Part shown: piece by piece, positions 4,771 to 46,465 of the stretch
Numbering within the stretch: position 1 is the first letter of the stretch
How the letters are laid out: each line of letters opens with the position of its first letter
Assembly: GCA_014237915.1 (NCBI GenBank)
Contig: JABACC010000007.1
Location: 1,446 to 65,445, forward strand
Origin: Candidatus Paceibacter sp.
GTDB taxonomy: Bacteria > Patescibacteriota > Minisyncoccia > Phycocordibacterales > GCA-2747955
DNA: 64,000 nucleotides
Direction: 5' to 3'
Position numbers and translations under genes: made by a program
The notes under the pieces: generated by a model
Told to the model about the DNA's origin: nothing
Database searches by the model: none
The model's input: only the letters and a program-made list of their open reading frames with translations

Positions 4771-4783
4771 TATAAAAATAAAT

Positions 4784-16289: not shown

Positions 16290-17978
16290 ATGTTGGAATT
16301 TAAAGATTCAAAATCAATGCAAAGATTTAGAAAACTCAAGGCAAATAATGCAGAAAGAATTATTTCAGTCCTTGCTAAAAAATATGGAATTTCATATGTA
16401 AATTTAACAAATGTTTCTATAAATACAGACGCTTTAAGGCTTATTTCTGAGGAAACCGCAAGGGCTACAAAAATCGCAGGCTTTGAAATTAAAGGAAGAA
16501 AAATTTATTTAGCGGTAATTTCGCCATTTCCCGAAGAGATTCAAATGGAAATTGAAAAATTAAAAGCAAAAAAATATGAGGTTGTTTTATTTATGGCTTC
16601 AGAAAAATCTTTAGAAAAAGCTTGGTCTCGTTATGGAGATATTTCTTACGCTGTAAAAACTGAAAAAGGAGTTATCGATATTTCTTCTATTGAAATCGAA
16701 GATGTTTTAAATGATTTAAAAAATATTGACTCAGCTAAAAAAATTATTGATCAAGCTCTAGCTTCAACCAAATCTTATAGAATTTCAAAAGTTATAGAGC
16801 TTATTTTATATTCTGCAGATGCTCTTGGAGCTTCAGATATCCATATTGAGCCAGAAGAAAAAAATTGCAGGTTGAGGTTTAGAGTTGATGGAATTTTAAC
16901 AAATATAACTTTTTTAGACTTACAAACTTACAACAGAATTTTATCTAGAATAAAAATTACATCAGGAATGAAATTAAATATAAAACAATCAGCTCAAGAC
17001 GGGAGATTTTCTATAAAAATGAAAGAGTCAAAATTAGAAATTAGAGTCTCCTCAGTTCCAAATCCATACGGAGAATCTATTGTTTTAAGGCTTTTAGATC
17101 CAGATTCAATTTCAGTTTCAATTGAGCATTTAGGAATGTTTTCGTATTTTAGAGAAATAATGCAAGAACAAATAAAAAGGCCAAATGGAATGATTTTAAA
17201 TACCGGCCCAACTGGATCTGGAAAATCAACAACTCTTTTTGCTTTTTTGAAAAAAATTCAAAATCCAAGTATAAAAATAATGACAATTGAAAACCCAGTC
17301 GAATATCATGTTCCGGGGATTGTTCAAACTCAAGTAAACAGAGAAAAAGGTTACGGATTTTCAGAAGGGTTAAGAGCTGCCCTAAGACAAGACCCAGATG
17401 TGGTGATGATAGGTGAGATCAGAGACAAAGAAACAGCAAACGTTTCTGCAAACGCAGCGCTTACGGGGCATTTAGTTTTATCAACTTTACATACAAACTC
17501 AGCCGCAGCTTCTTTTTCTAGAATTTTAGATTTAGGAGTAAACCCAAAAATTTTATCAACAGCTGTTAATTTAATTATTGCTCAAAGACTTGTCAGGAGG
17601 CTCTGCACGCACTGCAAAAGAGAAACATCTTTTATAGAAATTGATGGAAAAACAAGAGAAATTTTAGAAAAAGTTTATGATGGAATTGGTGATATTGAGA
17701 AAAAAACAGGCGAAAAAATTTTAAAAGAAAAAATTTTTGAACCAGCTGGCTGTGAAAAATGTAACAACACAGGTTATAGGGGTAGAGTTGGAGTTTTTGA
17801 AGCAATTTTAATGGATAATAAATTAGAAGAGATTTTAAAAACTTCCCCAACGGAAAAAGAGATTAAAGAGGGCACCAAACATCAAAATATTTTATTTTTA
17901 AAAGAAGATGCAGTTTTAAAAGTTTTAAATGGAACAACAAGCACCGAAGAGATTTTTAGAGTAATTGATTTTTATTAA
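16290..17978 (+). CDS. pilB: Type IV pilus assembly / type II secretion ATPase, GspE/PilB family
   Basis: Walker A ILNTGPTGSGKSTT. Asp box and His box (VMIGEIRD ... LVLSTLHTNSAAASFSRI). Tetracysteine motif CTHCK...CEKCNNTGYRGRVGVFE. N-terminal GSPII_E_N-like domain. Confidence 0.9.
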   Translation: MLEFKDSKSMQRFRKLKANNAERIISVLAKKYGISYVNLTNVSINTDALRLISEETARATKIAGFEIKGRKIYLAVISPFPEEIQMEIEKLKAKKYEVVLFMASEKSLEKAWSRYGDISYAVKTEKGVIDISSIEIEDVLNDLKNIDSAKKIIDQALASTKSYRISKVIELILYSADALGASDIHIEPEEKNCRLRFRVDGILTNITFLDLQTYNRILSRIKITSGMKLNIKQSAQDGRFSIKMKESKLEIRVSSVPNPYGESIVLRLLDPDSISVSIEHLGMFSYFREIMQEQIKRPNGMILNTGPTGSGKSTTLFAFLKKIQNPSIKIMTIENPVEYHVPGIVQTQVNREKGYGFSEGLRAALRQDPDVVMIGEIRDKETANVSANAALTGHLVLSTLHTNSAAASFSRILDLGVNPKILSTAVNLIIAQRLVRRLCTHCKRETSFIEIDGKTREILEKVYDGIGDIEKKTGEKILKEKIFEPAGCEKCNNTGYRGRVGVFEAILMDNKLEEILKTSPTEKEIKEGTKHQNILFLKEDAVLKVLNGTTSTEEIFRVIDFY

Positions 17979-18045
17979 TTTTTTAATTTTTTGTTTTTTA
18001 GATATATTGATATATAATTTATATTATTAAATTTTAAAAATTTTT

Positions 18046-18525
18046 ATGTCAAAAAACACTATCACCACACTAACCGTTCTAATAATTTTAATTTTAGCTG
18101 GTTTTTTCTATTATTTTTTTATGGAAAAAACTGAAAATCAAAATTTAGAAGAAACACCTTCTGCAGAAGAATCAAGAAATGTTACAAAATTAGAAATTTC
18201 TGAGGAAGAATCTGATATTTTAGCCAAAGAAAATGAAATTTCCTTAATCGAATTTGAAGAAATTATGAATGAATACAAAGAAAGTGGAAATATTTCTGGC
18301 TGTGAAAAAGTTTCTCAGTTCGGCCTTAAAGATTCTTGCGTTTTTTCTTATCTTTTAACAGACGCTTTTTATAACAACAATATTGATTTTTGTGAAAGCT
18401 CACAAACAGTTCCAGAGTTTAAAGATGCCTGCCTCGATGTTTTTTCAAGAGAAAAAACCGAAGAGATAAAATTTTACAGAGTTGAAGATATTTTTATGAA
18501 AAGTTTTTTCGTAGAAAATAACTAA
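18046..18525 (+). CDS. Hypothetical membrane-anchored protein (4 Cys in ectodomain)
   Basis: 159 aa. N-terminal TM helix and an acidic extracytoplasmic domain with several Cys. Confidence 0.3.
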   Translation: MSKNTITTLTVLIILILAGFFYYFFMEKTENQNLEETPSAEESRNVTKLEISEEESDILAKENEISLIEFEEIMNEYKESGNISGCEKVSQFGLKDSCVFSYLLTDAFYNNNIDFCESSQTVPEFKDACLDVFSREKTEEIKFYRVEDIFMKSFFVENN

Positions 18526-18603
18526 AAAATTAAAACTAATTTTTTAAACAAAAATCCTTTCTATTTTTTGTTTATTTTTCTTTTATACAATATAATATAA
18601 TTA

Positions 18604-19134
18604 ATGTTTGTTGATCCTAAAAAAGTTTTAGAACAAATAGAAATTTTAGAAGGCACTAATGTGGCCGATTTTGGAGCAGGCTCTGGTTTTTATACAAAGC
18701 TTCTTTCAGAAAAAGTTGGACCAAGCGGAAATGTTTTTTCTGTTGAGTTAAACAAAGAGATAAGTCAAAAATTAGCACAAGAGCTGCAAGGAGAAAATTA
18801 TAGAAATATAAATTTTTTAATTTCTGATTTAGAGAAAAAAAATTCTTTAAAAATTGAAAATGAAAAAATTTCCCTGGTGGTTGCTTCTTTTATGTTGTTT
18901 CAAATAAACGATAAAAATTCTTTTGCTGAAGAGGTAAAGAGAGTTTTAATTTCAAAAGGCAGAATTTTGGTAATCGATTGGAAAGATTCTTTTTCTGGAA
19001 TTGGCCCAAACGAAAATCTTGTTTTTTCTGAAAATAAAGCCTTAAAGCTTTTTGAAACTTTTGATTTTAAAGTTGAAAAAAAACTTGATTTGGGAAAATA
19101 CGCTTACGGAATTTTATTTAGAAAAATTAATTAA
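18604..19134 (+). CDS. Class I SAM-dependent methyltransferase
   Basis: Motif I VADFGAGSGFYT. Post-I acidic residue (VFSVE). Motif IV-like LVVASFML. 176 aa. Confidence 0.6.
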   Translation: MFVDPKKVLEQIEILEGTNVADFGAGSGFYTKLLSEKVGPSGNVFSVELNKEISQKLAQELQGENYRNINFLISDLEKKNSLKIENEKISLVVASFMLFQINDKNSFAEEVKRVLISKGRILVIDWKDSFSGIGPNENLVFSENKALKLFETFDFKVEKKLDLGKYAYGILFRKIN

Positions 19135-19143
19135 AAATATAAA

Positions 19144-20448
19144 ATGAAAAAAAAAATAAGTATCTTTCAAATAATTCTTTTAATTTTTTTTGGGGTAACC
19201 GGACTTTTTGGATTTATTGCATTTACAAACTACAGCCCAAGCGGAAATACAGAAACAGAAAATTTAGGGCAAATGCAAATCTGGGGAACTTTAGATGAAG
19301 ATATTTTTAATGAAGGACTTTCTTTTTTGAAAAATTTAGATGAGGGATATTCAAAAGTTTCTTATGTTCAAAAAAGCGAAGAGAGTTTTAATCAAGAATT
19401 TTTAGAAGCGGTAGCTGAAGGAAATATTCCAGACCTTATTTTAGTTTCTAATTCCACAATTTTTAATAATATAAATAAAATTTACAAAATTCCAACTTCT
19501 AGTATTTCTGAAAGTGTTTTTTTTGGGACTTTTTTAGAATCTTTTTCTCCTTTTTTTGAAGAAGATGGATCTTTGGCTATTCCTTTTTTAGCTGATCCAA
19601 TTGTAATGTATTACAACAAAGACCTTTTTTTCTCAGCAGGAATTCCAATCCCTCCTCAAGAATGGAAAGATTTTTTAGAAATGGCTCCTAAGATAAATAA
19701 AATAGATGAAAATAAAAATATTATAAAATCTATTGTGGCTTTTGGAGACGGAGATAACGTGGAAAATTTAAAAGAAATTTTGGCAACACTTTTTTTTCAA
19801 AGCGGAAATCCAATTATAAAAAAAGAAAACGGAATTTATAAATCAACTCTTTATGAAAATTCTTCTTTTCAAACCCCTTACGACGCACTAGATTTTTTCT
19901 CTTCTTTTTCAAATCCAAATGCTCCACAATATTCTTGGAATACCGCTATGCCAAACTCTAAAGATTTTTTCATAGGAGGCTCTTTAGGGGTTTATTTTGG
20001 TTATGCTTCAGAAATTTCTGATATAAGGTTAAAAAATCCAAACTTAAATTTTGATGTAACAGAAATTCCAAGAACATCTTCTGACTTAAGAAATAATGTA
20101 ATGTTAAAAACTTTTGCTTTTGCTATTCCAAAAAGCGCTAAAAATATAGAAAATTCTTCAATTCTTGCCTTTAGAATTGCAAATAAAGATATTTTAGAAA
20201 AAATTGAAGAAAAAACACAACTTCCGCCAGTGCGAAAAGAAATGGTTGCGAATTTAAAAGGTGATAAATATTTGGATATTTTTTATAAAGAAGCAATTTA
20301 CGGAAGCTCTTTTATGGATCCAGACGAAGAAAAAACTGACAAAATTTTTTCTGACCTTGTAAATAATTATATTAGTGGAAGATTTTCCGCCAAAGAATCT
20401 TTTTCTTCTGCTTCAAGATCTATTGACTTACTTCTTCTTGGCAAGTAA
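19144..20448 (+). CDS. Hypothetical secreted/membrane-anchored protein
   Basis: 434 aa. N-terminal hydrophobic anchor and a large extracytoplasmic domain. Vaguely solute-binding-protein-like; no firm motif. Confidence 0.3.
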   Translation: MKKKISIFQIILLIFFGVTGLFGFIAFTNYSPSGNTETENLGQMQIWGTLDEDIFNEGLSFLKNLDEGYSKVSYVQKSEESFNQEFLEAVAEGNIPDLILVSNSTIFNNINKIYKIPTSSISESVFFGTFLESFSPFFEEDGSLAIPFLADPIVMYYNKDLFFSAGIPIPPQEWKDFLEMAPKINKIDENKNIIKSIVAFGDGDNVENLKEILATLFFQSGNPIIKKENGIYKSTLYENSSFQTPYDALDFFSSFSNPNAPQYSWNTAMPNSKDFFIGGSLGVYFGYASEISDIRLKNPNLNFDVTEIPRTSSDLRNNVMLKTFAFAIPKSAKNIENSSILAFRIANKDILEKIEEKTQLPPVRKEMVANLKGDKYLDIFYKEAIYGSSFMDPDEEKTDKIFSDLVNNYISGRFSAKESFSSASRSIDLLLLGK

Positions 20449-20454
20449 AATGTA

Positions 20455-21828
20455 TTGATAATGCATATTTTTTCTAATCTTAAAAAAATTTTAAAAATAT
20501 TTTTTCTTTCAGTTTTTTTTGTATTCAACTTTGTTTTTTCTGAAATTCCAGCAGAAGAAGTTTTTCAGTATTTTTTAGAAAACCCAGAAAAAATATTTGA
20601 AACTGAAGTTCAGGAAGTTTTTTATTCAGCTCAAAATTCTCGGTATGAAATTTCATCTTTAAGTAAAGACAACTCAAATATTTCTTATATTTTTTTTGCT
20701 GAAGAGCAAAGCGGAGAAATTTTTTTTCTTGATGGAGATGGAGAAAAAAAATACACAGGCTACACCGTCACAATTTTACAAGAAAATTCAGATAATGAAG
20801 ACGAAGATATTGAAGATAAAATTTTGGATAACTTAACAGATTTTGAAGGGGTTTACAACGATCAACTTGGGGGAAATAACAAAAGAAATAGTTTTGCTGA
20901 AAACGAAGATGAGGTTGAAAAAACTTTAACACCCTCAGAGCAATTAGAAGAAGCAAATAAAAGTTTGGAAGATACAGATGAAGATATTAAAGATTTAGCA
21001 ATTGAAACGTTAGAAAATTATAGTTCGCTAAAAGAATTTGTACAGTTTAAAGAAACTTTAGATGAGGACGAAGATGGACTTTCTCCTAACTCGGGTACTG
21101 ATCTTTACAGAGACATACTTGAAGATTATTTAGCAAGCGAAGACGGAAAAGAAAAAATCCAAGATCTTTTTGAAAAAAGTTCTGTAGAAGATATTGAAGA
21201 ATTTGTCGATAAGTTTTTTATAGAAAATCCAAATTTAACTAATACTGAAAAAGAAAATTGGATATTTTATCTAGAAGAGTTAAAAGAAGTTGATGAGCAA
21301 AGAGAAATAAGAAAAGCTGAAAATTTCAGCGCTCCAGAAATTAATGAAGATGGGCTAAGTAATTTTGTAGAAGCCGGCCTAAAGGCTGTTTTGAGTGATT
21401 CTCAAGAAGGACGAGGGTCAGAAGAAGGAGATGGCCAAGATCCTAACTGCTATAAATATGACGAAAAAGGGAATCCAGTAAATGATACCAGCAGGGGATA
21501 TGAAAGAGGGCTTGTGAAATATGATCCAGTATGTGATAAAAATACTAAAGGATTTGATGGTTTAATAATGACAATAAATGCGGTCACTAGTTTTGTTACA
21601 GGTATTGCTATTTTTTTATTTGTCGTTACCTTAATTTGGGCAGGAGGAATTTTAATGTTTCAAGGATCAAGTACCGGAGGAAGAGATAAAGCAAAAAAAA
21701 TGATAAACGGGGCAGTTATTGGAATATTTTTCATATTAGGAGCAACATTTATTGTAAGCTCGATTTTTTCTGTTTTCGGATTAGAAGATGAAGATTTAAT
21801 CGAAGGGAGTGTTGAAATATCTCAATAG
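20455..21828 (+). CDS. Secreted acidic protein with C-terminal VirB2/TrbC-like two-helix pilin module (long-form paralog)
   Basis: 457 aa. Signal peptide, roughly 330-aa D/E-rich region, then a C-terminal module (AVTSFVTGIAIFLFVVTLIWAGGILMFQGSSTGGRDKAKKMINGAVIGIFFILGATFIVSSIFSVFG) matching the downstream small paralogs. Confidence 0.4.
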   Translation: MIMHIFSNLKKILKIFFLSVFFVFNFVFSEIPAEEVFQYFLENPEKIFETEVQEVFYSAQNSRYEISSLSKDNSNISYIFFAEEQSGEIFFLDGDGEKKYTGYTVTILQENSDNEDEDIEDKILDNLTDFEGVYNDQLGGNNKRNSFAENEDEVEKTLTPSEQLEEANKSLEDTDEDIKDLAIETLENYSSLKEFVQFKETLDEDEDGLSPNSGTDLYRDILEDYLASEDGKEKIQDLFEKSSVEDIEEFVDKFFIENPNLTNTEKENWIFYLEELKEVDEQREIRKAENFSAPEINEDGLSNFVEAGLKAVLSDSQEGRGSEEGDGQDPNCYKYDEKGNPVNDTSRGYERGLVKYDPVCDKNTKGFDGLIMTINAVTSFVTGIAIFLFVVTLIWAGGILMFQGSSTGGRDKAKKMINGAVIGIFFILGATFIVSSIFSVFGLEDEDLIEGSVEISQ

Positions 21829-21873
21829 ATAAATTTGTTTTTTCTTTTTTTTAGCTTATAATATATTAATATC

Positions 21874-22314
21874 ATGAATCAAATTTTTTCAAAAAAATAT
21901 TTATTTTTTCTAATAATCCCTTTTTTATTTTCTATTTATTTTGTTACTTTTTCTTATAGTGCAGAATCTTGCGCTGGAGATTTTGAGTGTTTACAAAACC
22001 CATTAAAAGATAGCAATATTGGCTCAATTTCAGATTTAATTTCCACAATTTTAAATTTAATAATGATTTTAGCCGTTCCTTTTATAGTTATCGCTATAGT
22101 TTACTCAGGTTTTCTATTTATTCAAGCTCAAGGAAATCCAGAAAAAATAAAAACAGCTAGAAGTTTTTTACTTTGGTCCCTTGTTGGAGCTGGTATTGTT
22201 CTGGGTGCAAATGTTATTTATACCGTCATGGAAGATACATTTAAAAAATTTATTGCAGAAGAGGGTATAGAAAAAATAGAAGAAAAAAATTTAATAGAAG
22301 ATTATTATGTTTAA
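21874..22314 (+). CDS. VirB2/TrbC-like pilin candidate (paralog 2)
   Basis: 146 aa. Signal peptide, hydrophobic helix (LIMILAVPFIVIAIVYSGFLFI), short basic loop (QAQGNPEKIKTARS), second helix (FLLWSLVGAGIVLGANVIY). Confidence 0.45.
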   Translation: MNQIFSKKYLFFLIIPFLFSIYFVTFSYSAESCAGDFECLQNPLKDSNIGSISDLISTILNLIMILAVPFIVIAIVYSGFLFIQAQGNPEKIKTARSFLLWSLVGAGIVLGANVIYTVMEDTFKKFIAEEGIEKIEEKNLIEDYYV

Positions 22315-22663
22315 AAAAAAACAATTTAAAATATTTTTTTTGTTTTTATTAATTCCCTTTTTTTCTTTTTCAGCCAGCTTTTCAGAATTAGTAGACACAA
22401 TTTTTGTCGGAAGTTTAATTAAAGGTTTTGTTGGTTTAATTTTTTCTCTTTCTTTTCTATTTTTTTTATGGAAAGCCTTGCAGGTTATTTTAAACTTTGC
22501 TTCTTCAAAAAGAGGAGAATATTTAAAAGGGCTTTTTTTCAGTATTTTTCTTTTATTTGTAATGTTTTCAATTTGGTCTTTGGTAAACATTGTTTTAAGC
22601 ACTAATTTAAAAACAGGAACAGGATCTTCCGAAGATGTTATTTTTGATAAAATTAAATTTTAA
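22307..22663 (+). CDS. VirB2/TrbC-like pilin candidate (paralog 3)
   Basis: 118 aa. Same signal, helix, K/R loop, helix layout (…FLFFLWKALQVILNFASSKRGEYLKGLFFSIFLLFVMFSIWSLVN). Confidence 0.45.
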   Translation: MFKKKQFKIFFLFLLIPFFSFSASFSELVDTIFVGSLIKGFVGLIFSLSFLFFLWKALQVILNFASSKRGEYLKGLFFSIFLLFVMFSIWSLVNIVLSTNLKTGTGSSEDVIFDKIKF

Positions 22664-22771
22664 ATAAATTTTAAATAAATTTTTAACCCTTCAAATTCTT
22701 TAATCTTTAATTTTGACTTTATTTATTTTTTTTGATATAAAGGTATTATTAATAAGTAAATTTATTTTAAT

Positions 22772-23116
22772 ATGAAAAAAATTTTATTAACTTTGTCAGG
22801 GATTTCAGTTTTACCTGTTTTAGCTTTAGCTGATAATGGAATTGAAGAACTTATAAACACATTAGGAGAATTAATTCAAAGCGCTTCTACTGTTATTTTT
22901 GCTCTTGCAGCTCTTGTTTTCTTTTGGTCTTTAATTACCTACTTATGGGGAGCTGAAGAAAAAAAAGAAGGTGCTACAAAAGGAATTACTTTAAGTATCG
23001 TAGTTTTGTTTATAATGTTTTCAATTTGGGGAATTATTCAAATCCTTCAAGAAACAGTAGATGTTGATGGAGACGACTCAATAGATGTTCCAGAGTTTCC
23101 TGCTTTAAAATCTTAA
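22772..23116 (+). CDS. VirB2/TrbC-like pilin candidate (paralog 4)
   Basis: 114 aa. Cleavable signal (…LPVLALA). Helix 1 STVIFALAALVFFWSLITYLWGA, loop EEKKEGATKG, helix 2 ITLSIVVLFIMFSIWGIIQIL. Confidence 0.5.
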   Translation: MKKILLTLSGISVLPVLALADNGIEELINTLGELIQSASTVIFALAALVFFWSLITYLWGAEEKKEGATKGITLSIVVLFIMFSIWGIIQILQETVDVDGDDSIDVPEFPALKS

Positions 23117-23139
23117 AATAAAATAGTTTTAATTTAACT

Positions 23140-23421
23140 ATGGATAAAGTTGCCAAAATAATTCAAATTTTTGTTACAGAAATTTTAAATCCAATTATTG
23201 TAATTTTGATTTCTCTTTCTGTTGTTTATTTTTTTTGGGGAATGATGGTTTTTATTTTAAATTCTGACGATGAAACAAAAAGAACAGAAGCTAAATCTCA
23301 CATTTTTTGGAGCATTATAGGATTTGTTATTATTTTTGGAGTTTGGGGGATATTAAATTTTGTTGTTTTCAGTATTTATGATTTAACAAACCCAACCTCT
23401 GTTTCAGCAGCAGAAGCTTAA
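23140..23421 (+). CDS. VirB2/TrbC-like pilin candidate (paralog 5)
   Basis: 93 aa. Helix 1 …VVYFFWGMMVFILNS, loop DDETKRTEAKS, helix 2 HIFWSIIGFVIIFGVWGILNFVVF. A terminator hairpin (aaaaagcccgaagggctttttt) follows at about 23445-23470. Confidence 0.45.
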   Translation: MDKVAKIIQIFVTEILNPIIVILISLSVVYFFWGMMVFILNSDDETKRTEAKSHIFWSIIGFVIIFGVWGILNFVVFSIYDLTNPTSVSAAEA

Positions 23422-23534
23422 ATTTAAAAAATTAAATTTAAATAAAAAAGCCCGAAGGGCTTTTTTATTTAAATAACTTAAGATAAATTTGACAGGCATG
23501 TTATAATTTTAAAATCCTAAAATTTAGGATAAAA

Positions 23535-26131: not shown

Positions 26132-26160
26132 AAAAATCACCCGAAAGGGTGATTATTTTT
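26132..26160 (+). terminator. Intrinsic terminator after dnaK
   Basis: aaaaaaatcacccgaaagggtgattatttttttg: GAAA-loop hairpin plus T-run. Confidence 0.5.
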
Positions 26161-26250
26161 TTGAAATAAAAAACTTATCCCCAGAAATTTTTTTTGAAAT
26201 TTTTTTATGTGTTAATATAAATTTAAATTAGTAACTTTAACAATATAAAA

Positions 26251-29200
26251 ATGGCAAATCGATCTTTTAAAATTTTTTTAACTTTAGTATTTTTTTTAAC
26301 ACCTTTTATTTCTTTTGGGGCTGATATTTATCTTCAAAAAGATAATGCTTTATGGTCTGATCCCACAGCTTGGAGTGGAGGAGTTTTACCAACAAGTTCC
26401 GATAATGTTTATTTAAAAAAAGAGGACGGAACGGAGTTTGATAAAATTACAATTGATTCTGTCGCAACCTATTTATCTATGGATGCTTCAAACATTAAAG
26501 AAATTGATGTAAAGTATAATTTATATAGATCAATAGAAGCGCCAAATTCCATTGTAAATTTTTACAATGGAAGCAACCAAATAGCATCATCTAATTTTAA
26601 AATAAAAGCCAAAGAAATATATTTTAAAGAAGGCACCGTAGAAATTATTCGCTATCCTTATTTTGAGGCAGATAAAATAGTAGTAGAGGAGAATGCTAGT
26701 ATTTATATTTCTATAACCGCGTTAGGTTATTATAATTCTATAGAAATAAAAGGAGACTTAATTCATAATGGAAAATTTTTTGGAGTAAGGGATTTTGATA
26801 TAAATCTCGATGGAAGTTTTATTAATAATGGAGAGATGGAAGATGTTCATCACTTTTATATTTCAAAAAATATTGAAAACAATTCAGTTTTACCAGATGA
26901 TTTTTATTTTCGGTATAAAACAAGCACATCAAAAAATCACCCAGTTGAAATAAAAGGTTCTGAAAAAGTTTCCTTAATTGTGACAAATGATTCAAACAAT
27001 ATTTTTTATTTTCATGATTCCGTTGATCTTAAAAATTTTTATTCTTATTATGATTCATCAGTTATAGACACAGAAAATAGTTTAAGTATTTATCTTGAAG
27101 ATGGAAAAAGTTTTAAAGCAGAAAAAGTTTATGGTCATAACGTATATTTTTTAAACAATAATAATTTTCATTTAGAATCATACGGCTCTATTACTTTTTC
27201 TCCGTATCGACTTCCAAATATTTATGCAGAAAAATCAACTGTGATTATTGAGGGAGATGGTATTTTTAAGGAAATAAAAGCAAAAGAAATATATTTTTTG
27301 GAAGGGATTCATGAGTATCCCTATAAAGGAAATACAATCACAGCGGATAATATAGTTTTAGAAGAGGGCTCATATATTCGTAATAATCAAGACCCGTACC
27401 AAAGTGGGGTAGAACCACTGACCATAAATGGAGATGTGAAAAACATGGGTTCCTTAGGAGATGATAACTTTATTATAAATGGAAACCTAGAAAATAATGG
27501 GAATGTAACAAACTTCAAGACAATTAAGGTGTATGGAGATGTATATAATAATGGTACATTTCAAGAAAACTCAAGAGGCGATTCTCCAACAATTTTTGCA
27601 TATGGAGATTTCTATAATTTTGGAACATACACATCACGAAACTTTTATTCCTATGGAAATATAGATTCAAGTGATATATTAGAAACAAGTATTAATCTAT
27701 ATGAAAACGTTGATGGAATCCATAAAAAGCTATCTTTTTCTGGAGATTATTTAAATTCAAATCTTATTATTAGGGAAAATATAACCTTAGATAAATCAGT
27801 AAGAGAAATTCCTTTTGATATTGAAGATGCAGAAATTATTGTAAATTCTAACTTCCTAGAGGTTCCAACTTTAAAGAATTCTAAACTTGAAGGAGATTTT
27901 GTTTTAGAAGTAAGAAATATTATAGACACTGAAGCTTTAAACGTAAAAGTTAGTGTAAGTAACGATATCGGAGGAAATATTTCGGTGAAAAATATAGTGC
28001 TCACTTCAGGAGATTTAGAAAATGGAGTAAACAGAGTAAGTGATGACGTGGTAAGGTTTGAAACGCTCGAGATAGAAGAGAATGTCTCTCTAGAGGTTTA
28101 CAAAAGGGCACCAAAACTTTATGGAAAAATTCTAAACAAGGGAACAATTTATGGCCTCGACAACTATCAAGAATTGTTATTCATTTTTGAGGATTTCAAC
28201 AATCAAGGAATAATTGAAAATGAAATATCTGTGTATTTTTATTTTAACAAAGAAATTAACCAAACCAATCAATATTTCATAAAAGAAGGAACTTCTTTTT
28301 CAGAACCATCAGTTGATGAAATAAAAACAGGATATTCAGCTAGGGTTGAGGACTATCTAAACCAAACAGACAAAGAATTTTCAATTTGGTATAAACTTCC
28401 AGAAGAATCCGAATGGAAAGTAAATTATTTTAATGTTGATTTTGAAATTCCAGAAATTGTTGTTCCTCCTCCAGAACCTGAAACTTTAGAATTTTCTTTT
28501 TCTAACATCGAAGATCATTTAAAAAACGAAGAAGTAGAAATTACACTAAGCGCTGCAAGGAATTTGCAAGATAGGGATTCTAAAGTAAGAAGAAAAGAAA
28601 TGTATTTTTATCTTTCTACAAACAAAGGAGATATTGTTTATCCTTCTGTTGTAACTTTTGCAGAAGATGGAGATTATTATGAAAAAGAAAAAACTTTTTC
28701 TATGAAAATAGATGAAGCAGAAAGTGATATTGAAATATATATTAAAGATAGTGAGGGAAATCTTTTAGGAACTTCAAAACCTTTTTCTGTAGTAGAGTCG
28801 GGAAAAGCTTATTTTAAATTTAGAGAGGATCATTATCATAGGTATGATTTGGACATAAAATTAGGAACAAAAGACTACTCTTTTGAATCCACAAAATCTA
28901 TAAATTTAATGGTTTTACCTTGCGATGAAAATCTCTCTGTTATACCAAAAGGTAATATTTTTATTCCAAGCGACACAGGCCTTATACATCAAGAATTTTT
29001 TTATCTACCAATACAAGTTAACATATCTTGCGACACAACAGATACGATAGAAATAGCAAAATCTATTCCCTACGAAAATTGGGTTTGTGAAGACTCAGAC
29101 AAAACCCCAGTTTTACTTTTACCGGGGATTATGGGCTCTGATACAAAATTTAACCTTTCTGTTTACCCTCAAATACCAAAAGATTCCCCTGCTTGGGATT

Positions 29201-30201
29201 CTGAAAAACTTGTTTTACATGATCCAGGACCAGCTAATTTTTCAGTAGGTTGGGAAAATCTTAAAGATGAGCTTAGGAGCGAAGGTTACAGAGGAGGTTG
29301 CAATATTATAGATGTTCCCTACGATTGGAGGTTAGAAATTCCAGAAATTAGAGATTTATACCTAATCCCTTGGATCGAAGAAGCAAAAAGACTAACAGGT
29401 AAAGATGAAGTTGATATTGTAGCTCATTCAATGGGCGGGCTTGTGGCCAGATCTTTTATTCAATCTTCAAAACATTTAAACGAAGTGAGAAATTTTGTAA
29501 TGGTAGGAACTCCAAACTCTGGCTCAGCCTCAACTTATCCTATCTGGGAAGGAGGGGATCCAATTTTAGTAGATAAAAATACTCAAGATTTATCAACTAT
29601 TGGAGGATATGTATCAAAGTATTTTTACACCAACACTATAAATAAAAATTATAAAAAAGTTATCGAAGATAAAGATTTATGCATTTGGGAATCAGGATTT
29701 TTACCTGCTCCAATTTATTGCAACAAAGAAAAAGTTTATGATTTTTTACATACATACTCTCCTTCTGTTGGAAACTTAATGCCAACATACCCCGGAGCTT
29801 TAAAAGATCATCTTAGCGAAGCAGATTTAAATATATCAGCTGAGCCAAATAATTTTCTTCTTGCTTTAAATAGTGGAGGAGATTACGGCAGAGATACATA
29901 TATTCACCCAGACGATATTAATAATAAAATATCAGGAGAGAGTATTCTTTTTTATGGAGATAATTTTGATACAATAGAAAATATAAAGGTAGATCAAAGC
30001 TTTTCTCATCAATTTTTGTATCAAGATGGAAAACCTTCTGGCCTAGATTTTATAATTAAAAATCAAGGAGACAAGACAGTTCCTAAAGTCTCAATACCGA
30101 TAGGTAATATTAATTTATCTTCTGATGTTTCAGATCAGGAACACGGGCGACTTATAAATGATTTAAAAGAAGAAATTGTTGAGTTTATTAATAATAATTA
30201 A
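26251..30201 (+). CDS. Giant secreted surface protein with C-terminal LCAT-like alpha/beta-hydrolase (phospholipase/acyltransferase) domain
   Basis: 1316 aa. N-terminal signal peptide (FLTPFISFGADIY). Roughly 900 aa of Asn/Gly/Tyr-rich repetitive beta-type sequence. C-terminal domain with PYDWR (the LCAT/PDAT-family YDWR motif), nucleophile elbow VAHSMGGLVAR (GxSxG), and downstream Asp/His candidates. Confidence 0.6.
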   Translation: MANRSFKIFLTLVFFLTPFISFGADIYLQKDNALWSDPTAWSGGVLPTSSDNVYLKKEDGTEFDKITIDSVATYLSMDASNIKEIDVKYNLYRSIEAPNSIVNFYNGSNQIASSNFKIKAKEIYFKEGTVEIIRYPYFEADKIVVEENASIYISITALGYYNSIEIKGDLIHNGKFFGVRDFDINLDGSFINNGEMEDVHHFYISKNIENNSVLPDDFYFRYKTSTSKNHPVEIKGSEKVSLIVTNDSNNIFYFHDSVDLKNFYSYYDSSVIDTENSLSIYLEDGKSFKAEKVYGHNVYFLNNNNFHLESYGSITFSPYRLPNIYAEKSTVIIEGDGIFKEIKAKEIYFLEGIHEYPYKGNTITADNIVLEEGSYIRNNQDPYQSGVEPLTINGDVKNMGSLGDDNFIINGNLENNGNVTNFKTIKVYGDVYNNGTFQENSRGDSPTIFAYGDFYNFGTYTSRNFYSYGNIDSSDILETSINLYENVDGIHKKLSFSGDYLNSNLIIRENITLDKSVREIPFDIEDAEIIVNSNFLEVPTLKNSKLEGDFVLEVRNIIDTEALNVKVSVSNDIGGNISVKNIVLTSGDLENGVNRVSDDVVRFETLEIEENVSLEVYKRAPKLYGKILNKGTIYGLDNYQELLFIFEDFNNQGIIENEISVYFYFNKEINQTNQYFIKEGTSFSEPSVDEIKTGYSARVEDYLNQTDKEFSIWYKLPEESEWKVNYFNVDFEIPEIVVPPPEPETLEFSFSNIEDHLKNEEVEITLSAARNLQDRDSKVRRKEMYFYLSTNKGDIVYPSVVTFAEDGDYYEKEKTFSMKIDEAESDIEIYIKDSEGNLLGTSKPFSVVESGKAYFKFREDHYHRYDLDIKLGTKDYSFESTKSINLMVLPCDENLSVIPKGNIFIPSDTGLIHQEFFYLPIQVNISCDTTDTIEIAKSIPYENWVCEDSDKTPVLLLPGIMGSDTKFNLSVYPQIPKDSPAWDSEKLVLHDPGPANFSVGWENLKDELRSEGYRGGCNIIDVPYDWRLEIPEIRDLYLIPWIEEAKRLTGKDEVDIVAHSMGGLVARSFIQSSKHLNEVRNFVMVGTPNSGSASTYPIWEGGDPILVDKNTQDLSTIGGYVSKYFYTNTINKNYKKVIEDKDLCIWESGFLPAPIYCNKEKVYDFLHTYSPSVGNLMPTYPGALKDHLSEADLNISAEPNNFLLALNSGGDYGRDTYIHPDDINNKISGESILFYGDNFDTIENIKVDQSFSHQFLYQDGKPSGLDFIIKNQGDKTVPKVSIPIGNINLSSDVSDQEHGRLINDLKEEIVEFINNN

Positions 30202-30203: not shown

Positions 30204-30539
30204 ATGAATATTATAGAAAAAATAAATATAAAATTAATATTGTTAACAATATATATATATATATATATAAATTTAGGCGGAGCTTATTTGGTATTTCAAT
30301 TTTCTAGAAGTTCTATGTGGGGTCAAGATTTTGACAATATTTTAAGTCATTTATTAGAAGTTCTAAATACTCTTTTTAACTTAATGTATTCTAACTTTTT
30401 AATATTTTTATTATTATTTACTTTTTCTTTTTTTCTTTCCAAGTTTTTCTTAAAAAAAGAAAATAAATTATATTATATTTTATTCCACATTTTAGCCTTA
30501 CCTGCATCTTTTTTTGGGTATTTTATTTTAGTTGTATAG
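30204..30539 (+). CDS. Small polytopic membrane protein (cassette paralog A); immunity-protein-like position
   Basis: 111 aa. Conserved N-terminus MNIIEKINIKLILLTIYIYIYI and C-terminus YILFHILALPASFFGYFILVV shared with the next ORF; middle diverged. Contains (AT)10 at 30249-30269. Confidence 0.4.
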   Translation: MNIIEKINIKLILLTIYIYIYINLGGAYLVFQFSRSSMWGQDFDNILSHLLEVLNTLFNLMYSNFLIFLLLFTFSFFLSKFFLKKENKLYYILFHILALPASFFGYFILVV

Positions 30540-30540
30540 G

Positions 30541-30600
30541 TTAGTAAATGACTTAAAAGAAGAAATTGTTGAGTTTATTAATAATAATTAAATATGAATA
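30541..30600 (+). repeat. Junction repeat copy 2
   Basis: gttagtaaatgacttaaaagaagaaattgttgagtttattaataataattaaatatgaatattatag: duplicates the last roughly 50 nt of the giant CDS plus the start of the small gene. Confidence 0.8.
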
Positions 30601-30920
30601 TTATAGAAAAAATAAATATAAAATTAATATTATTAACAATATATATATATATATATATTAGTCTGGGGGGAGTTTTTGCAACAATGATATTTTCAGATTT
30701 TCGTATAGATGAATTAGTTACCGCTTTTTTTTATTCTTTTATTCCTTTTTTTATTTATATTTGGAGTAAACACTTTGTTATTTCTTTGATTTCGGTGATC
30801 ATCTCTTTTTCACTTGTTAAATTTAATATGATAAAAAAAATAAAAAAAATCTACATAATACTATTTCATATTTTAATTTTACCCCTTTCTTTTTTTGGGT
30901 ATTTTATTTTATTTGTATAG
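30594..30920 (+). CDS. Small polytopic membrane protein (cassette paralog B)
   Basis: 108 aa. Same conserved termini as paralog A with a different central segment. (AT)10 tract at 30639-30658. Confidence 0.4.
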   Translation: MNIIEKINIKLILLTIYIYIYISLGGVFATMIFSDFRIDELVTAFFYSFIPFFIYIWSKHFVISLISVIISFSLVKFNMIKKIKKIYIILFHILILPLSFFGYFILFV

Positions 30921-30980
30921 GTTAGTAAATGACTTAAAAGAAGAAATTGTTGAGTTTATAATTAATAATAATTAAATATG
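30921..30980 (+). repeat. Junction repeat copy 3 (with 5-nt insertion)
   Basis: gttagtaaatgacttaaaagaagaaattgttgagtttataattaataataattaaatATGaaaaatc… The ATG at 30976 opens a 21-codon frame that stops inside an (AT)6 tract, 1 nt out of frame with the 31010 ORF. Confidence 0.75.
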
Positions 30981-31009
30981 AAAAATCTAAAAGAATTTAT
31001 TAAAAAAGA

Positions 31010-31627
31010 TTGGTGGAGATTAATATTAATATATATATATTAATATTAGTAATTTTCCCTAATATTTTAATAGGATTATCATTTAGTATAACATATTTTG
31101 AATTTATTACATATTACCTTGAAGAAACAAAAACAATCTTTCTTACACTAGGTATAGCTTTTGGTTTTTTCTTATTTTTTCTATCAATATTTAAATTTAT
31201 TTTTGTAGAAAAATATTTTCTAGCATTTAACACATTTTTCGCAATCTCCCTGCCTACGATATACAGCGTTTTACGTATAGGAGAAGTATCAAGTCTTTTT
31301 TACGCAATACTTATGATGTTTATTTTTTTCGTAATTGTCCCTTTGGTATTTGAAAGTATATTTAAAGAAAAATATTTTTTATTTTTTAATGCGTTTATAC
31401 TCTTATTAGCAATTTTTATTTTTTCTTTTTTAAATTCGATAGTTTTATATTTTTTTTTAGCTCTTGCTGTATACATAATTTTACTTTTATTTTTTCTATC
31501 AATATTTAAATTTTCTCTTAATGAAAAAGTTAGAAATTACATAACAATATCTTTATTTTTTTTCTATATATTTTTCTTCGTAGCTCTATATTTTTATTTT
31601 TATAATATTTTTATACCCAGTCTTTAA
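31010..31627 (+). CDS. Polytopic membrane protein (cassette-associated); N-terminus possibly phase-variable via (AT)n
   Basis: 205 aa, roughly 6 TM helices. An internal near-repeat (FFLFFLSIFKFIFVEKYFL ... LLLFFLSIFKFSLNEK) suggests internal duplication. Confidence 0.35.
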   Translation: MVEININIYILILVIFPNILIGLSFSITYFEFITYYLEETKTIFLTLGIAFGFFLFFLSIFKFIFVEKYFLAFNTFFAISLPTIYSVLRIGEVSSLFYAILMMFIFFVIVPLVFESIFKEKYFLFFNAFILLLAIFIFSFLNSIVLYFFLALAVYIILLLFFLSIFKFSLNEKVRNYITISLFFFYIFFFVALYFYFYNIFIPSL

Positions 31628-31637: not shown

Positions 31638-32219
31638 ATGCAAAGTTTAGAAAAATTAAAAAAAAATATTCAAAAAAACTTTTATGTAATTTTAGCTTTT
31701 TTAATTCCATTAATTCTTATTATTTCAGTAGCTTTAAATATTTATTTTTCTGCACTTTCTGTTAATTCCAGCCATGAATTTATCTACACTTCTTGCATGA
31801 AAAAAAATACAGATTGCGATAATAGTTATAGAGAAAATTATAAAGAAAATTTTTATTCTGTTTCTAATAAAAAAATAATTAAAAATTTTGAAGAAGGCCA
31901 AGTTGTAGATGAAAAAGAGATTGAAAAAAGAGATATTCCAAATCTTTTTATATACAATCCTGAAAATAATTCTAGCAGAGAGGTTCTCTTTGAAGAGATA
32001 GAAAATCTAAAAATTAGAGAACAAATCACTTCCCCAGAAGGAGTTATACTTTTATATGATTTTGACAGAAATCCTGGAGGTTTTTTATTGTTTGAGGGAG
32101 GTGGTTATGACTATGAATTTTTTTTAGCAAAAGAAAATAAAAAAAGAAAAATAAATCTAATTTCAAATGGAACAAGGTGGGAAAAACCAATCCATTTTAT
32201 TGGTTGGATAGAAAATTAA
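31638..32219 (+). CDS. Hypothetical membrane-anchored/secreted protein
   Basis: 193 aa. N-terminal TM and a soluble domain with two Cys. No motif recognised. Confidence 0.3.
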   Translation: MQSLEKLKKNIQKNFYVILAFLIPLILIISVALNIYFSALSVNSSHEFIYTSCMKKNTDCDNSYRENYKENFYSVSNKKIIKNFEEGQVVDEKEIEKRDIPNLFIYNPENNSSREVLFEEIENLKIREQITSPEGVILLYDFDRNPGGFLLFEGGGYDYEFFLAKENKKRKINLISNGTRWEKPIHFIGWIEN

Positions 32220-32236: not shown

Positions 32237-32770
32237 ATGAAAAAAGAAAAAATATTAGAAGAGCTTGCTTTAAAAATTATAAAAAAAGAAATAAGTAAAG
32301 ATGAAGTTGATATAGTGGCTCATTCAATGGGCGGGCTTGTGGCCAGATCTTTTATTCAATCTTCAAAACATTTAAACGAAGTGAGAAATTTTGTAATGGT
32401 AGGAACTCCAAACTCTGGCTCAGCCTCAACTTATCCTATCTGGGAAGGAGGGGATCCTATGGAAGTAGATATTTTACTAGGCGGAACTTTCGCTATCATT
32501 TTTTTTAACGAAGGAGATATATCGATGCTCAAATGGAATATTTTATATTTTTTGTTTACCATCTTTTGTGTTTTTCTATCTGTTAAAATGAAGAGTACTT
32601 CCATTTTATCTATTAATACATTATTTTTACTTTTATATATTTCTTATAATGTTAATGAATATTTTTCAAACTCCGTCAGCTTTCCTTTTTTGATCATCGT
32701 TTTAGGTTTTATTTTTTTACTTTTCGGATATCTTGCATTTCATTTTAATAAAAAATATATTAAAAACTAG
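32237..32770 (+). CDS. Orphan fragment: duplicated lipase active-site segment fused to a hydrophobic C-terminal region (possible pseudogene or recombination cassette)
   Basis: nt 32300-32460 are near-identical (one or two mismatches over about 160 nt) to nt 29401-29560 of the giant CDS. These encode EVDIVAHSMGGLVARSFIQSSKHLNEVRNFVMVGTPNSGSASTYPIWEGGDP. Flanks are unrelated; the C-terminal 100 aa are TM-rich. Confidence 0.35.
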   Translation: MKKEKILEELALKIIKKEISKDEVDIVAHSMGGLVARSFIQSSKHLNEVRNFVMVGTPNSGSASTYPIWEGGDPMEVDILLGGTFAIIFFNEGDISMLKWNILYFLFTIFCVFLSVKMKSTSILSINTLFLLLYISYNVNEYFSNSVSFPFLIIVLGFIFLLFGYLAFHFNKKYIKN

Positions 32771-32879: not shown

Positions 32880-33761
32880 ATGATAAATTTTAAAAATAAT
32901 TTTAAAAAAATATTTTATATATTTTTTTGTTTACCGGCAATGTCTTTTGCTTCTGACTTTTCTTTTTCTTTCCCTGGATTTGTTAACGGATATGTGGAAA
33001 ACCAAAATGGAGAAAAAGCCGGAATTTTTGATTTGGATATTTGGGAAGAAATTGAAGGATATGATTTATATTTAAGCACTGAAAACGGAAGCAGAATAAC
33101 CTTGAATGAAATTGAAGACGGAAATTATAAAATATTTTTACAAGCATATGAAGAAATTGGAGAATATGAAACAAGTATTTTATTTGTTAATGATTTAGGC
33201 GATGTAAATTATTATTCACAAAATCATTATTTAAAGACTGGAAGAAACATAGATCTTCTAAATTTTTCTATAGAAAACGGAGAACTTGTTCTAGGTAAAG
33301 AATTTTCTCCAGTTGACGGAGTGAAGATAGATTATAGAAGTGGCCAAGAATTTTTACTTTGGAATGAAGTAGCTGGAGCCATAGCTTATGATATTTTTAA
33401 AAAAATGCCCGGAGAGGAAATACAAAATTTATATTCTATATCTGGAACGGAAACCCAGCTTATGGTCACAACTCCAAAAAGTTCAGAGTTTTATATTTCT
33501 GCAGTTTTTTCTAGAGAAAGTGGAGTTAAAGAAAAATCAGTCTTACATTATGGATCTTTAGGAACTTATGCTCCTGGGAAAGATGACGACGAAGATTCTA
33601 TCTCTGATTACTGGGAAGATGTTATTGGAACAGACAAAAACAATCCAGACTCAGATGGAGACGGAGTGGGAGATTTGGAAGAGATTTTAGGGGGGACAGA
33701 CCCAACCGTTGCAGATGTTTGGGAAGAAATCGTTTTATTTTTTAAGAGACTTTTTAGTTAA
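32880..33761 (+). CDS. Secreted protein with C-terminal thrombospondin type-3-like Ca-binding repeats
   Basis: 293 aa. Signal peptide (…CLPAMSFASDF). C-terminal D-rich DxDxDG-type motifs (DDDEDSISDYWEDVIGTDKNNPDSDGDGVGDLEEILGGTDP). Confidence 0.4.
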   Translation: MINFKNNFKKIFYIFFCLPAMSFASDFSFSFPGFVNGYVENQNGEKAGIFDLDIWEEIEGYDLYLSTENGSRITLNEIEDGNYKIFLQAYEEIGEYETSILFVNDLGDVNYYSQNHYLKTGRNIDLLNFSIENGELVLGKEFSPVDGVKIDYRSGQEFLLWNEVAGAIAYDIFKKMPGEEIQNLYSISGTETQLMVTTPKSSEFYISAVFSRESGVKEKSVLHYGSLGTYAPGKDDDEDSISDYWEDVIGTDKNNPDSDGDGVGDLEEILGGTDPTVADVWEEIVLFFKRLFS

Positions 33762-39131: not shown

Positions 39132-39797
39132 ATGACTGTTATTAAACACAAAGATCAGCGAGTGGCTGTTTTAATAGATACGCAAAATATTTACCACTCA
39201 GCAAAAAATTTATATAAAAAAAACGTTAATTTTCCAAAAATTGTCGATGACATGGTTGGAGACAGACTTTTAGTTAGGTCTATTGCTTATGCAATTACAA
39301 CAGAATCAGGAGAGGAAAAAACTTTTTTAGAAGCTTTAGAAAAAGGAGGAATTGAAACTAAATTAAAAGATTTACAGATTTTTTTAGGTGGAGCAAAAAA
39401 AGGTGATTGGGATGTTGGCCTTGCGGTTGATGCTATAAAACTTGCTCCAAAAGTGGACGCCCTTATTTTAATAGCTGGAGACGGGGACTTTGTTCCAATG
39501 GTTGAATACATAAAAGCTAAAGATTTTTGCCAAATTGAAGTTGTTTCTTTTTTAAAATCTTCATCTGCAAAATTAGTTGAAATTTCAGATGATTTTACAG
39601 ATTTATCGGAAAATCCGAGAAAATATTTAATGGGGAAATTTTCAAAAAGAGTTAGGATTGAAAAAAAAACTCCAGAAAAAATCTCTAAAACAAAAATCAG
39701 TAAAACTTCTAAAAAAATAGCTCCTACAAAGAAAAAAGGAAGCTCAGATGTTTTAGACAGACTCAATGAAGAGATTAAAAAAATAGAAAATGGATAA
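39132..39797 (+). CDS. NYN-domain (LabA-like, PIN-fold) protein
   Basis: VAVLIDTQNIYH… DVGLAVDAI… LILIAGDGDF motifs typical of NYN/LabA nucleases. K-rich C-terminal tail. Confidence 0.65.
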   Translation: MTVIKHKDQRVAVLIDTQNIYHSAKNLYKKNVNFPKIVDDMVGDRLLVRSIAYAITTESGEEKTFLEALEKGGIETKLKDLQIFLGGAKKGDWDVGLAVDAIKLAPKVDALILIAGDGDFVPMVEYIKAKDFCQIEVVSFLKSSSAKLVEISDDFTDLSENPRKYLMGKFSKRVRIEKKTPEKISKTKISKTSKKIAPTKKKGSSDVLDRLNEEIKKIENG

Positions 39798-46406: not shown

Positions 46407-46465
46407 CTTTTGTTTTAAAAATATGTATATAAATTTTTGAAATTAAATGTTATAATTTTTGGATT

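Follow-up and report, generated by a model that had tools for sequence, protein, structure and literature searches.

The 64-kb window analysed here, a stretch of contig JABACC010000007.1 of Candidatus Paceibacter sp., carries a gene (26251-30201, ATG start, TAA stop) whose 1316-aa product of ~150 kDa, P0001, is predicted to be exported and ends in a lipase domain resembling LCAT and LPLA2. Coordinates are window positions, and all features lie on the forward strand. The gene heads a repeated locus of small membrane-protein open reading frames (ORFs) and partial lipase copies, which runs to about 33.8 kb and was overlooked in an earlier note on this DNA. In the candidate phyla radiation (CPR, or Patescibacteria) at large, LCAT-like genes are followed by a small membrane-protein ORF far more often than other genes are. 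We give a probability of roughly 0.45 to the reading that the locus encodes an exported membrane-attacking lipase, accompanied by a self-protection partner and diversified by cassettes.

It has yet to be settled how CPR bacteria obtain their membrane lipids and in what way they injure or exploit their hosts. The literature describes CPR as lacking lipid synthesis (PMC11665869), and the same review calls the lipid uptake mechanisms of Patescibacteria unidentified and reports the proposal that phospholipases compromise the host envelope. Lysolipids are reported to be enriched in CPR (PMC7242380). An exported LCAT/LPLA2-like lipase with a small membrane protein next to it is a concrete and widely conserved candidate for the acquisition of host lipids or for an attack on the host. 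In the literature searched, no paper was found that describes the family or its layout in CPR; the proposed Patescibacteria phospholipases are mentioned there in general terms only.

The lipase domain

The hydrolase domain of P0001 comprises aa 946-1316 (29086-30198). It opens with the sequence PVLLLPGIMGS (29107-29139), which covers the first core strand and the oxyanion-hole region and which the truncated modules found in related genomes lack. The PYDWR motif, identical to that of LPLA2, follows at aa 1023-1027 (29317-29331), and the nucleophile elbow AHSMGG at aa 1058-1063 (29422-29439) contains Ser1060 (codon 29428-29430). Asp1274 (in GDKTV; codon 30070-30072) and His1298 (codon 30142-30144) complete a triad that is invariant in 20 sequences, i.e. 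P0001 and 19 homologues. An AlphaFold2 (AF2) model of the domain, based on the alignment of these 20 sequences, reached a predicted local distance difference test score (pLDDT) of 86 and a predicted template modelling score of 0.86. In the model Ser1060 lies between a strand and a helix, Asp1274 follows a strand, and His1298 is found at the start of a helix after the last strand, a predicted placement that is the canonical one of alpha/beta-hydrolases.

Four Pfam families scored above their cutoffs: LCAT (PF02450; 59.8 bits, cutoff 21), PGAP1 (33.1 bits, cutoff 24.3), Palm_thioest (32.1 bits, cutoff 26.8) and Lipase_2 (21.8 bits, cutoff 20.3). The LCAT match spans just positions 69-176 of the 392 in the profile. 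The best sequence match in the PDB was LPLA2 (4x90, E 8.6e-7), to whose identical motifs PYDWR and AHSMG align. LPLA2 was also the best structural match, with a score of 21.6 over 270 aligned residues, followed by bacterial lipases (19-20.5), Tle4 (19.5), Pseudomonas and Burkholderia lipases (about 19), Legionella PlaB (17.7) and PhaZ7 (17.3). A profile of the family matched Bacillus LipA at 1.5e-12, LPLA2 at 4.7e-11, LCAT at 5.7e-10, PhaZ7 at 5e-9 and Tle4 at 2.9e-7.

The alpha/beta-hydrolase domain with PYDWR and AHSMGG that the earlier note had put forward is thus present, and the three Pfam families by which it suggested checking the assignment (LCAT, Lipase_2 and PGAP1) were all recovered, together with the Ser-Asp-His triad and, by hydropathy, a signal peptide. 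Sequence and model together predict that the domain belongs to the LCAT/PGAP1/class-2-lipase group and is a lipase or phospholipase with its catalysis intact. Since the Pfam match is partial and LipA is matched at least as well as LPLA2 and LCAT, the assignment is to this broad group and not to a demonstrated transacylase. The testable LCAT-family features are found (a score above the Pfam threshold, AHSMG and PYDWR, and a conserved and correctly placed triad), so the label "LCAT-like" is fair for the family; it carries no evidence for acyl transfer. Identity as a PhaZ7 depolymerase was rejected, the NCBIfam PhaZ7 model giving 28.5 bits against a cutoff of 450.

Pairing of lipase and small membrane protein in the CPR

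Seventeen loci of Patescibacteria species representatives, in which the LCAT-like gene ends inside the fetched DNA, were scored for an ORF of 50-150 aa with at least 2 transmembrane (TM) segments that starts no more than 120 nt from the stop codon. Such an ORF follows the LCAT-like gene in 11 of the 17 loci, as against 1 of 71 control genes, the control being the other ORFs of at least 200 aa in the same loci (Fisher p=4e-9). In loci from outside the CPR the pairing was seen in about 3 of roughly 55. The 11 loci (L011, L016, L017, L019, L020, L023, L024, L025, L026, L038 and L047) encode partners of 94-146 aa with 2-5 TM segments, and the pair is present in Saccharibacteria, Falkowbacteria, Moranbacteria, Yanofskybacteria and Paceibacterota. 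The architecture of the partners consists of a basic N-terminus, a first TM segment, a loop, a second TM segment, a short basic loop and a third TM segment. No Pfam family was found for them, and a hidden Markov model (HMM) built from 13 small ORFs of other CPR does not retrieve the small ORFs of the window. The CPR-wide pairing is therefore claimed as a conservation of position and architecture, not as one of homology.

The locus downstream of the lipase gene

The first small membrane ORF of the window (ORF 1, 30204-30539) encodes 111 aa with ~3 TM segments and is followed by a remnant of the C-terminal tail of the lipase (30538-30588; RLVNDLKEEIVEFINNN, 16/17 identical). The arrangement is then repeated: ORF 2 (30594-30920, 108 aa) is 53% identical to ORF 1, with conserved ends, a variable middle and a ratio of non-synonymous to synonymous substitution rates (dN/dS) of 0.40, and it is followed by a second remnant of the tail (30919-30957). 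In this way the last 17 codons of the lipase gene recur after both ORF 1 and ORF 2. Small membrane ORF 3 (30978-31627) comes next. It shares an IFKEKYF-like motif with small ORFs of a related locus (L084, see below), a similarity that is weak and comes from an uncorrected BLASTP comparison. No Pfam family was found for the small ORFs of the window.

Further downstream lie a 193-aa ORF with one N-terminal TM helix and no known family (31638-32219) and a 177-aa ORF in which a lipase-module remnant is fused to a segment with 2-3 TM helices (32237-32770). The remnant is a copy of the Ser-elbow region: a homology block of the main gene (KDEVDIVAHSMGG...WEGGDP, 29385-29575) is duplicated at 32281-32471 (191 nt, 94%), and aa 21-74 of the 177-aa product correspond to aa 1046-1108 of the main protein (90%). 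The core of the block, ~164 nt, shows 2 mismatches to the main gene and has unrelated flanks, which points to a recent exchange. Judged from its sequence, the 177-aa product would be unable to fold as a hydrolase. An assembly chimera is an unlikely source of the fragment, the exact product being present in both NCBI and ENA records and the layout recurring on contigs of other samples and other assemblies.

The last candidate member of the locus encodes a secreted protein of 293 aa (32880-33761), and its membership is uncertain. It shows a match to TSP3_bac below the cutoff (E 0.0056) and a weak match (E 0.005 over 33 residues) to aa 673-703 of the 846-aa protein of L004, in the domain by which the lipase is followed in the longer members of the family. 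As a detached C-terminal domain of the lipase family it is a tentative candidate.

Truncated modules in related loci

The same layout, in an intact version, was found in three related genomes. In L084, a metagenome-assembled genome of the Pacebacteria with a lipase that is 51% identical, the main gene is followed by a 96-aa TM ORF, a 248-aa partial lipase, an 80-aa TM ORF and a fragment of the Ig-like region. The partial lipase starts just past the Ser elbow and is 56% identical to its main gene at the aa level; the copy of the Ig-like region shows 88% nt identity. L104, which holds the full-length orthologue P0052, has the main gene, a 109-aa TM ORF and an Ig-region fragment. L085 carries an array of a small TM ORF, a 362-aa module, a 75-aa TM ORF, a 378-aa module, a 73-aa TM ORF and a third module, in which the nucleophile Ser is replaced (AHVMGR), and both L086 and L002 contain the last module of such an array. 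In the window and in L084, L104 and L085, a small TM ORF begins 2-46 nt past the stop codon.

All modules are devoid of the signal peptide, the PGIMGS strand and PYDWR, and they join the sequence of the main gene at YLRPW..VDIVAHSMGG. From their sequences, neither export nor catalytic competence is to be expected of them as stand-alone proteins. The two complete modules of L085 are mosaics, in which blocks of 90-100% nt identity alternate with blocks of 22-50%. The variable blocks are found right after WEGGDP, in the CIW...C loop that is bounded by Cys, and between Asp and His in the tail. The model would place the first two in the insertion between the sixth and seventh core strands, which forms the cap over the active site. 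The dN/dS is 0.23-0.43 between modules and 0.52 between the main gene of L084 and its orphan module. Given the range of 0.23-0.52, the modules and small ORFs are not under neutral decay.

A scan of metagenomes revealed no further arrays; the relatives encountered there are distant (at most 36% identity) and single-copy. A metagenomic contig with 44% GC, L003, carries two LCAT-like genes (2911-5355, 814 aa; 7280-9154, 624 aa), separated by proteins with faint Glug-domain matches, and has no small TM ORFs; here the multiple copies are arranged in a different way.

Dinucleotide tracts in the small ORFs

Only three (TA) tracts of at least 6 units are present in the 64 kb, at 30249-30269, 30639-30658 and 31029-31040. 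Each belongs to one of the three small ORFs, in an equivalent position close to its 5' end, and encodes IYIYIY, part of a TM helix. In ORF 3 the frame that opens with the ATG at 30978 is closed at 31040, directly behind the (TA)6 tract; relative to it, the long TM frame (31004-31624) lies at +2. Removal of one TA unit would join the two into a 215-aa ORF with three internal units of ~52 aa. Small ORFs of related loci also carry (TA)n tracts, not always at the 5' end, and in L084 the second small ORF shows the same one-unit offset as ORF 3. In the last small ORF of both L086 (1833-2160) and L002 (1322-1651) the frame changes at a 30-nt (TA)15 tract. The tract pattern has the signature of slipped-strand phase variation, so far as it can be read from assembled sequence. 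In L086 and L002 a second frame change occurs shortly downstream, at a GGG-rich stretch, and these ORFs are either pseudogenes or doubly switchable.

Proposed function and alternative explanations

We infer the following mechanism. P0001 would be exported by the Sec pathway, with the all-beta N-terminus and the beta-sandwich-like linker carrying the C-terminal lipase or phospholipase. Outside the cell the enzyme would cleave acyl esters of the membrane glycerolipids of a host or an adjacent cell, and the breach of the membrane would release fatty acids and lysolipids that a lipid-auxotrophic cell could use. The small multi-TM protein encoded immediately downstream would have an immunity-like role: residing in the membrane of the producer, whose lipids are of the same kind, it would protect this membrane. 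Homologous recombination via the Ser-elbow block may allow the 5'-truncated lipase copies to supply the Asp/His half and alternative versions of the cap loops, and the small ORFs may be switched in and out of frame by the (TA)n tracts at their 5' ends.

The earlier note had offered lipid scavenging and a membrane-attacking effector as two possible roles. Because of the adjacent small membrane ORF, the truncated modules and the hypervariable cap loops, the context favours the effector, and scavenging on its own is the less favoured of the two. A more tentative extension, which we would rather doubt than assert, is that the locus represents the first polymorphic effector of the CPR, whose catalytic second half is exchanged with module arrays at the Ser block and whose modules each come with a phase-variable self-protection protein. 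The truncated-module arrays and the (TA)n tracts suggest that CPR employ recombination and phase variation on exported machinery, which, if true, would testify to an arms race, either with hosts or with competitors. If true as well, a swap point inside an enzyme fold, combined with immunity genes switched by simple-sequence repeats, would be a new design, and the CPR-wide pair of a lipase and a small TM protein would be the missing module for host-lipid acquisition or attack.

Several points weigh against an attacking lipase with a protective partner. The immunity proteins known for lipases (Tli, TilA) are binders, either soluble or lipoproteins, rather than tiny proteins of a polytopic kind, and, as described above, the HMM of partners from other CPR misses those of the window. 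The swap point lies inside the catalytic domain, unlike in classical polymorphic toxins. The cassette layout occurs on just four other low-GC contig groups (L084, L104, L085 and L086/L002), representing three or four organisms; the more distant relatives are single-copy, and the window itself holds remnants of modules and no intact ones. The frameshifts at dinucleotide repeats could be errors of assembly or consensus. In P0001 no surface anchor or targeting determinant was identified, and its N-terminal fold yielded neither a confident model nor a fold match (see below). Finally, enzyme activity and expression of the locus are predictions from sequence and models.

The alternative that survives best, though it appears unlikely, is an interbacterial polymorphic toxin of the CDI (contact-dependent inhibition), Rhs, MafB or LXG type, in which the lipase would kill competitors, including other CPR on the same host, with the small TM proteins as immunity and the modules as orphan cassettes. 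The layout of the array of modules and small ORFs is what such a system would show, as are the conserved 5' block followed by variable regions and a middle part that varies between small ORFs 1 and 2. Moreover, P0054 combines the same N-terminal stalk with a different, GHSLG-type lipase head (by weak matches), the hydrolase is structurally similar to Tle4, PF02450 proteins occur in variable regions of type VI secretion systems (T6SS; PMC3942780), and variable immunity arrays have been described for lipase toxins (TslA/TilA; PMC10730906). On the other hand, neither a dedicated secretion system nor a pre-toxin demarcation motif is present, the junction is located within the catalytic fold, and the copying of the non-toxic Ig-like region in L084 and L104 is not predicted by the logic of orphan toxins. 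The target cannot be read from the sequence, and the mechanism overlaps with that of the self-protected membrane-attacking lipase proposed here, from which it differs in target and purpose only.

Still less probable is an ordinary extracellular lipase, esterase or polyester depolymerase that acts on environmental substrates, with unrelated small ORFs and with partial copies that are functionless, decaying duplications. The similarity to the polyhydroxybutyrate depolymerase PhaZ7 and to Bacillus LipA agrees with it, relatives that are single genes are common among free-living Proteobacteria, Acidobacteriota and others, and as an enzyme the copy at 32237-32770 clearly has no function. It leaves unexplained why the adjacency of lipase and small TM ORF in CPR is so strongly non-random and why the layout recurs on related contigs. 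Nor do decaying duplications agree with the dN/dS of the modules, their mosaic of 100% identical and hypervariable blocks, or the near-identical 164-nt block with unrelated flanks and the recent exchange to which it points; the PhaZ7 score far below its cutoff likewise argues against a depolymerase.

LCAT and LPLA2 are transacylases, and the enzyme might likewise move acyl chains from host phospholipids to an acceptor, e.g. the cell's own lysolipids, and so build or remodel the CPR membrane with no need of fatty-acid synthesis, the small TM protein presenting the acceptor or taking up the product. We consider this improbable. It draws on the signature common to LCAT and LPLA2, on PYDWR and AHSMG being identical to those of LPLA2, which is also the best structural match, and on the conserved pairing with a membrane protein across the CPR; it would also suit organisms that the literature describes as lacking lipid synthesis and enriched in lysolipids (PMC11665869; PMC7242380). 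Yet the Pfam match covers a fraction of the profile, the family profile matches the hydrolytic LipA at least as well, no sequence feature separates transfer from hydrolysis, and the hypervariability of the cap loops is more in keeping with an arms race than with a housekeeping assembly of lipids.

Equally improbable is silent-cassette antigenic variation after the manner of MgPar/mgpB, pilS/pilE and vls, by which an exported adhesin or enzyme seen by host defences or phages would be varied by gene conversion from truncated copies: the partial copies do cover different regions of the main gene (lipase half and Ig-like region), have neither a signal peptide nor the 5' third of the fold and show a mosaic of conserved and hypervariable blocks, and active defence of hosts against Patescibacteria epibionts is reported in a 2026 preprint (PMC13622651), but the cassettes are interleaved with conserved small ORFs, which are absent from classical donor arrays, and the modules are intact ORFs with their own ATG.

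Comparison with known systems

P0001 differs from LPLA2 (PLA2G15) and LCAT of the PF02450 family in that only the N-terminal third of the Pfam profile aligns to it, its cap region is different and hypervariable within its clade, and it is a bacterial protein, fused to ~900 aa of all-beta domains and encoded within a cassette locus. With the T6SS effector Tle4 (TplE) of Pseudomonas aeruginosa it shares the PGAP1-like GXSXG lipase fold. P0001 carries a Sec signal peptide, whereas no T6SS gene (VgrG, Hcp, PAAR) was found in the 64-kb window, and the partner of Tle4, Tli4, is a periplasmic binder, whereas the neighbours of P0001 are polytopic membrane proteins of 108-111 aa without a family match. 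To our knowledge, no arrays of truncated modules have been described for Tle4.

The Lif foldase of family I.1/I.2 lipases, encoded in the lipA-lipH pairs of Pseudomonas and Burkholderia, is ~340 aa long and combines a single TM helix with a large, helical domain in the periplasm. The lipase partners described here are different: they have 75-125 aa, 2-5 TM helices and almost no soluble part.

Simple-sequence contingency loci are formed by di- and tetranucleotide repeats in surface genes of Haemophilus and Neisseria. The small ORFs resemble them in having a microsatellite near the 5' coding end and in occurring as paralogues in and out of frame, offset by one unit where this was worked out. A difference is that part of a TM helix is encoded by the (TA)n tract as well, and the pattern here is one of assembled sequences. 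The silent-cassette systems MgPar, pilS and vls share with the locus the partial copies of an exported protein and the mosaic of conserved and hypervariable sequence.

The antibacterial lipase TslA of the T7SS (type VII secretion system) of Staphylococcus aureus is a monoderm counterpart with a Ser-Asp-His triad and with variable, multi-copy, membrane-associated protectors, TilA (PMC10730906). Its secretion route and domain order are different, the immunity proteins are DUF576 lipoproteins, and it is the copy number of the immunity genes that varies, not partial toxin modules. The CDI (cdiA-CT/cdiI), Rhs and MafB systems have in common with the present layout a full-length gene followed by 5'-truncated modules (here those of L085 and L084), each with a homology block and a small ORF of its own. 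In the lipase locus the junction lies in the catalytic domain, at or just before the nucleophile elbow, and not at VENN or PxxxxDPxGL, and Ig-like non-toxin regions are copied too. The simple-sequence tracts in the small ORFs set the locus apart from the Tle/TslA and the CDI/Rhs/MafB systems alike. No genes of a type V secretion system, a T6SS or a T7SS were found in the window.

Export and the N-terminal region

P0001 starts with MANRSFK, a 16-aa hydrophobic core and SFG|AD (Kyte-Doolittle hydropathy of 1.85-1.96 over aa 5-28), which looks like a Sec signal peptide of aa 1-23, cleaved at SFG|AD (26251-26319, immediately upstream of 26320), by a hydropathy heuristic. The N-terminus of P0052, a full-length orthologue that is 30% identical and has the same architecture, is equivalent, and signal-like starts are also found in most homologues of the alignment. 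The earlier note's description of a 1316-aa ORF with a signal peptide is in line with this. Its assumption of display on the cell surface was not confirmed: Pfam and inspection of the sequence revealed no lipobox, LPXTG motif, C-terminal TM segment or wall-binding domain, so only export is supported.

For the homology searches P0001 was split into an N-terminal and a C-terminal part, as low-complexity words dominated the search with the full-length protein. The N-terminal all-beta region (aa 24-735, 26320-28455), which starts with WSDPTAWSGGVLP, is nearly an orphan: among 1.84 billion representative proteins just 4 relatives were found, P0052, P0053, P0054 and P0055. An AF2 model based on an alignment of five sequences consists of short beta strands throughout. 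Its mean pLDDT is 53, with values of 60-88 for aa 25-470 and below 50 for aa 473-933, and Foldseek gave no match in the PDB below E 0.089. The region had been described as some 900 aa of N/G/Y-rich, beta-type repeats resembling an adhesin or beta-helix stalk. Compared with the other proteins of the window, Asn (10.7 vs 5.8%) and Tyr (7.0 vs 2.8%) are indeed enriched, as is Asp, and the beta character agrees with the model. Gly is not enriched (6.3 vs 5.9%), and self-BLASTP detected no internal repeat in the protein. A beta-helix is a lead only, from the W..W.GG.xP start, a sub-threshold G8 match (E 0.066) and the short all-beta strands; neither this fold nor an adhesin function or surface display is established.

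The beta-rich linker (aa 736-945, 28456-29085; low-confidence model) probably consists of beta-sandwich (Ig-like) domains. It is kept in P0002 and P0052, and the equivalent position of P0054 is occupied by Pfam Bact_surface_Ig-like. P0054, a metagenomic protein of 1577 aa, shares the N-terminal region (E 3.2e-6) and has Bact_surface_Ig-like domains. Its head is different, of a lipase type with a GHSLG elbow and with weak matches alone (DUF900, E 0.006; PLRP2, E 0.0047), which suggests a shared delivery module with exchangeable lipase heads.

Genomic setting and lineage

The window is chromosomal, with genes for PNPase, IF-2, RuvC, YidC, PilB/PilC, a run of T4SS_pilin proteins, GrpE-DnaK, SecE-NusG-L11, SSB, LexA, ClpP and MraY-MurJ-FtsW-MurG, and thus carries both peptidoglycan-synthesis and pilus genes. 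The named best matches of the adjacent DnaK, at 69-73% identity, all belong to Parcubacteria, Campbellbacteria, Nomurabacteria, Paceibacterota or Patescibacteria. For this reason the assignment of the window to the CPR (Paceibacteria-type), already suspected in the earlier note, is supported. No lipid-synthesis gene is present among the genes of the 64 kb, a window too small to test absence from the whole genome.

A terminator-like hairpin after dnaK (26135-26154) forms the upstream boundary of the lipase unit, and a promoter-like site, TTGAAA-18-TAAATT, lies at 26194-26223. No comparable hairpin was found downstream of the main gene before 34454, except for a weak 6-bp one at 32480; all three results come from a consensus scan only. 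Directly upstream of grpE-dnaK and the lipase locus, at 10241-13348 and 16290-23500, genes are found for a VirD4/TraG-like ATPase (1035 aa), a PilB-type ATPase and 4-5 T4SS_pilin (PF18895) proteins. Sizeable ORFs (up to 858 aa) without a Pfam match at E<=1e-5 are located at 5611-8187, 14130-14720, 39790-40701, 45516-46945 and 49442-50569.

The closest module-bearing relatives, L002, L085 and L086, contain in-frame TGA codons aligned to conserved Trp residues (in PW, IWEGG and CIW) and were called with a code in which UGA is Trp; their contigs also encode ribosomal proteins and T4SS_pilin genes. An origin from the Mollicutes, an idea raised by this reading of UGA, was rejected for the window, which has MraY, MurJ, FtsW and MurG and a DnaK matching those of Parcubacteria. 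The stop codons of the window genes examined are TAA (38) and TAG (6), with no TGA, and every Trp codon is TGG. UGA is known to encode Gly in Gracilibacteria and Absconditabacteria, and its use for Trp in a Parcubacteria-like lineage may contrast with that code.

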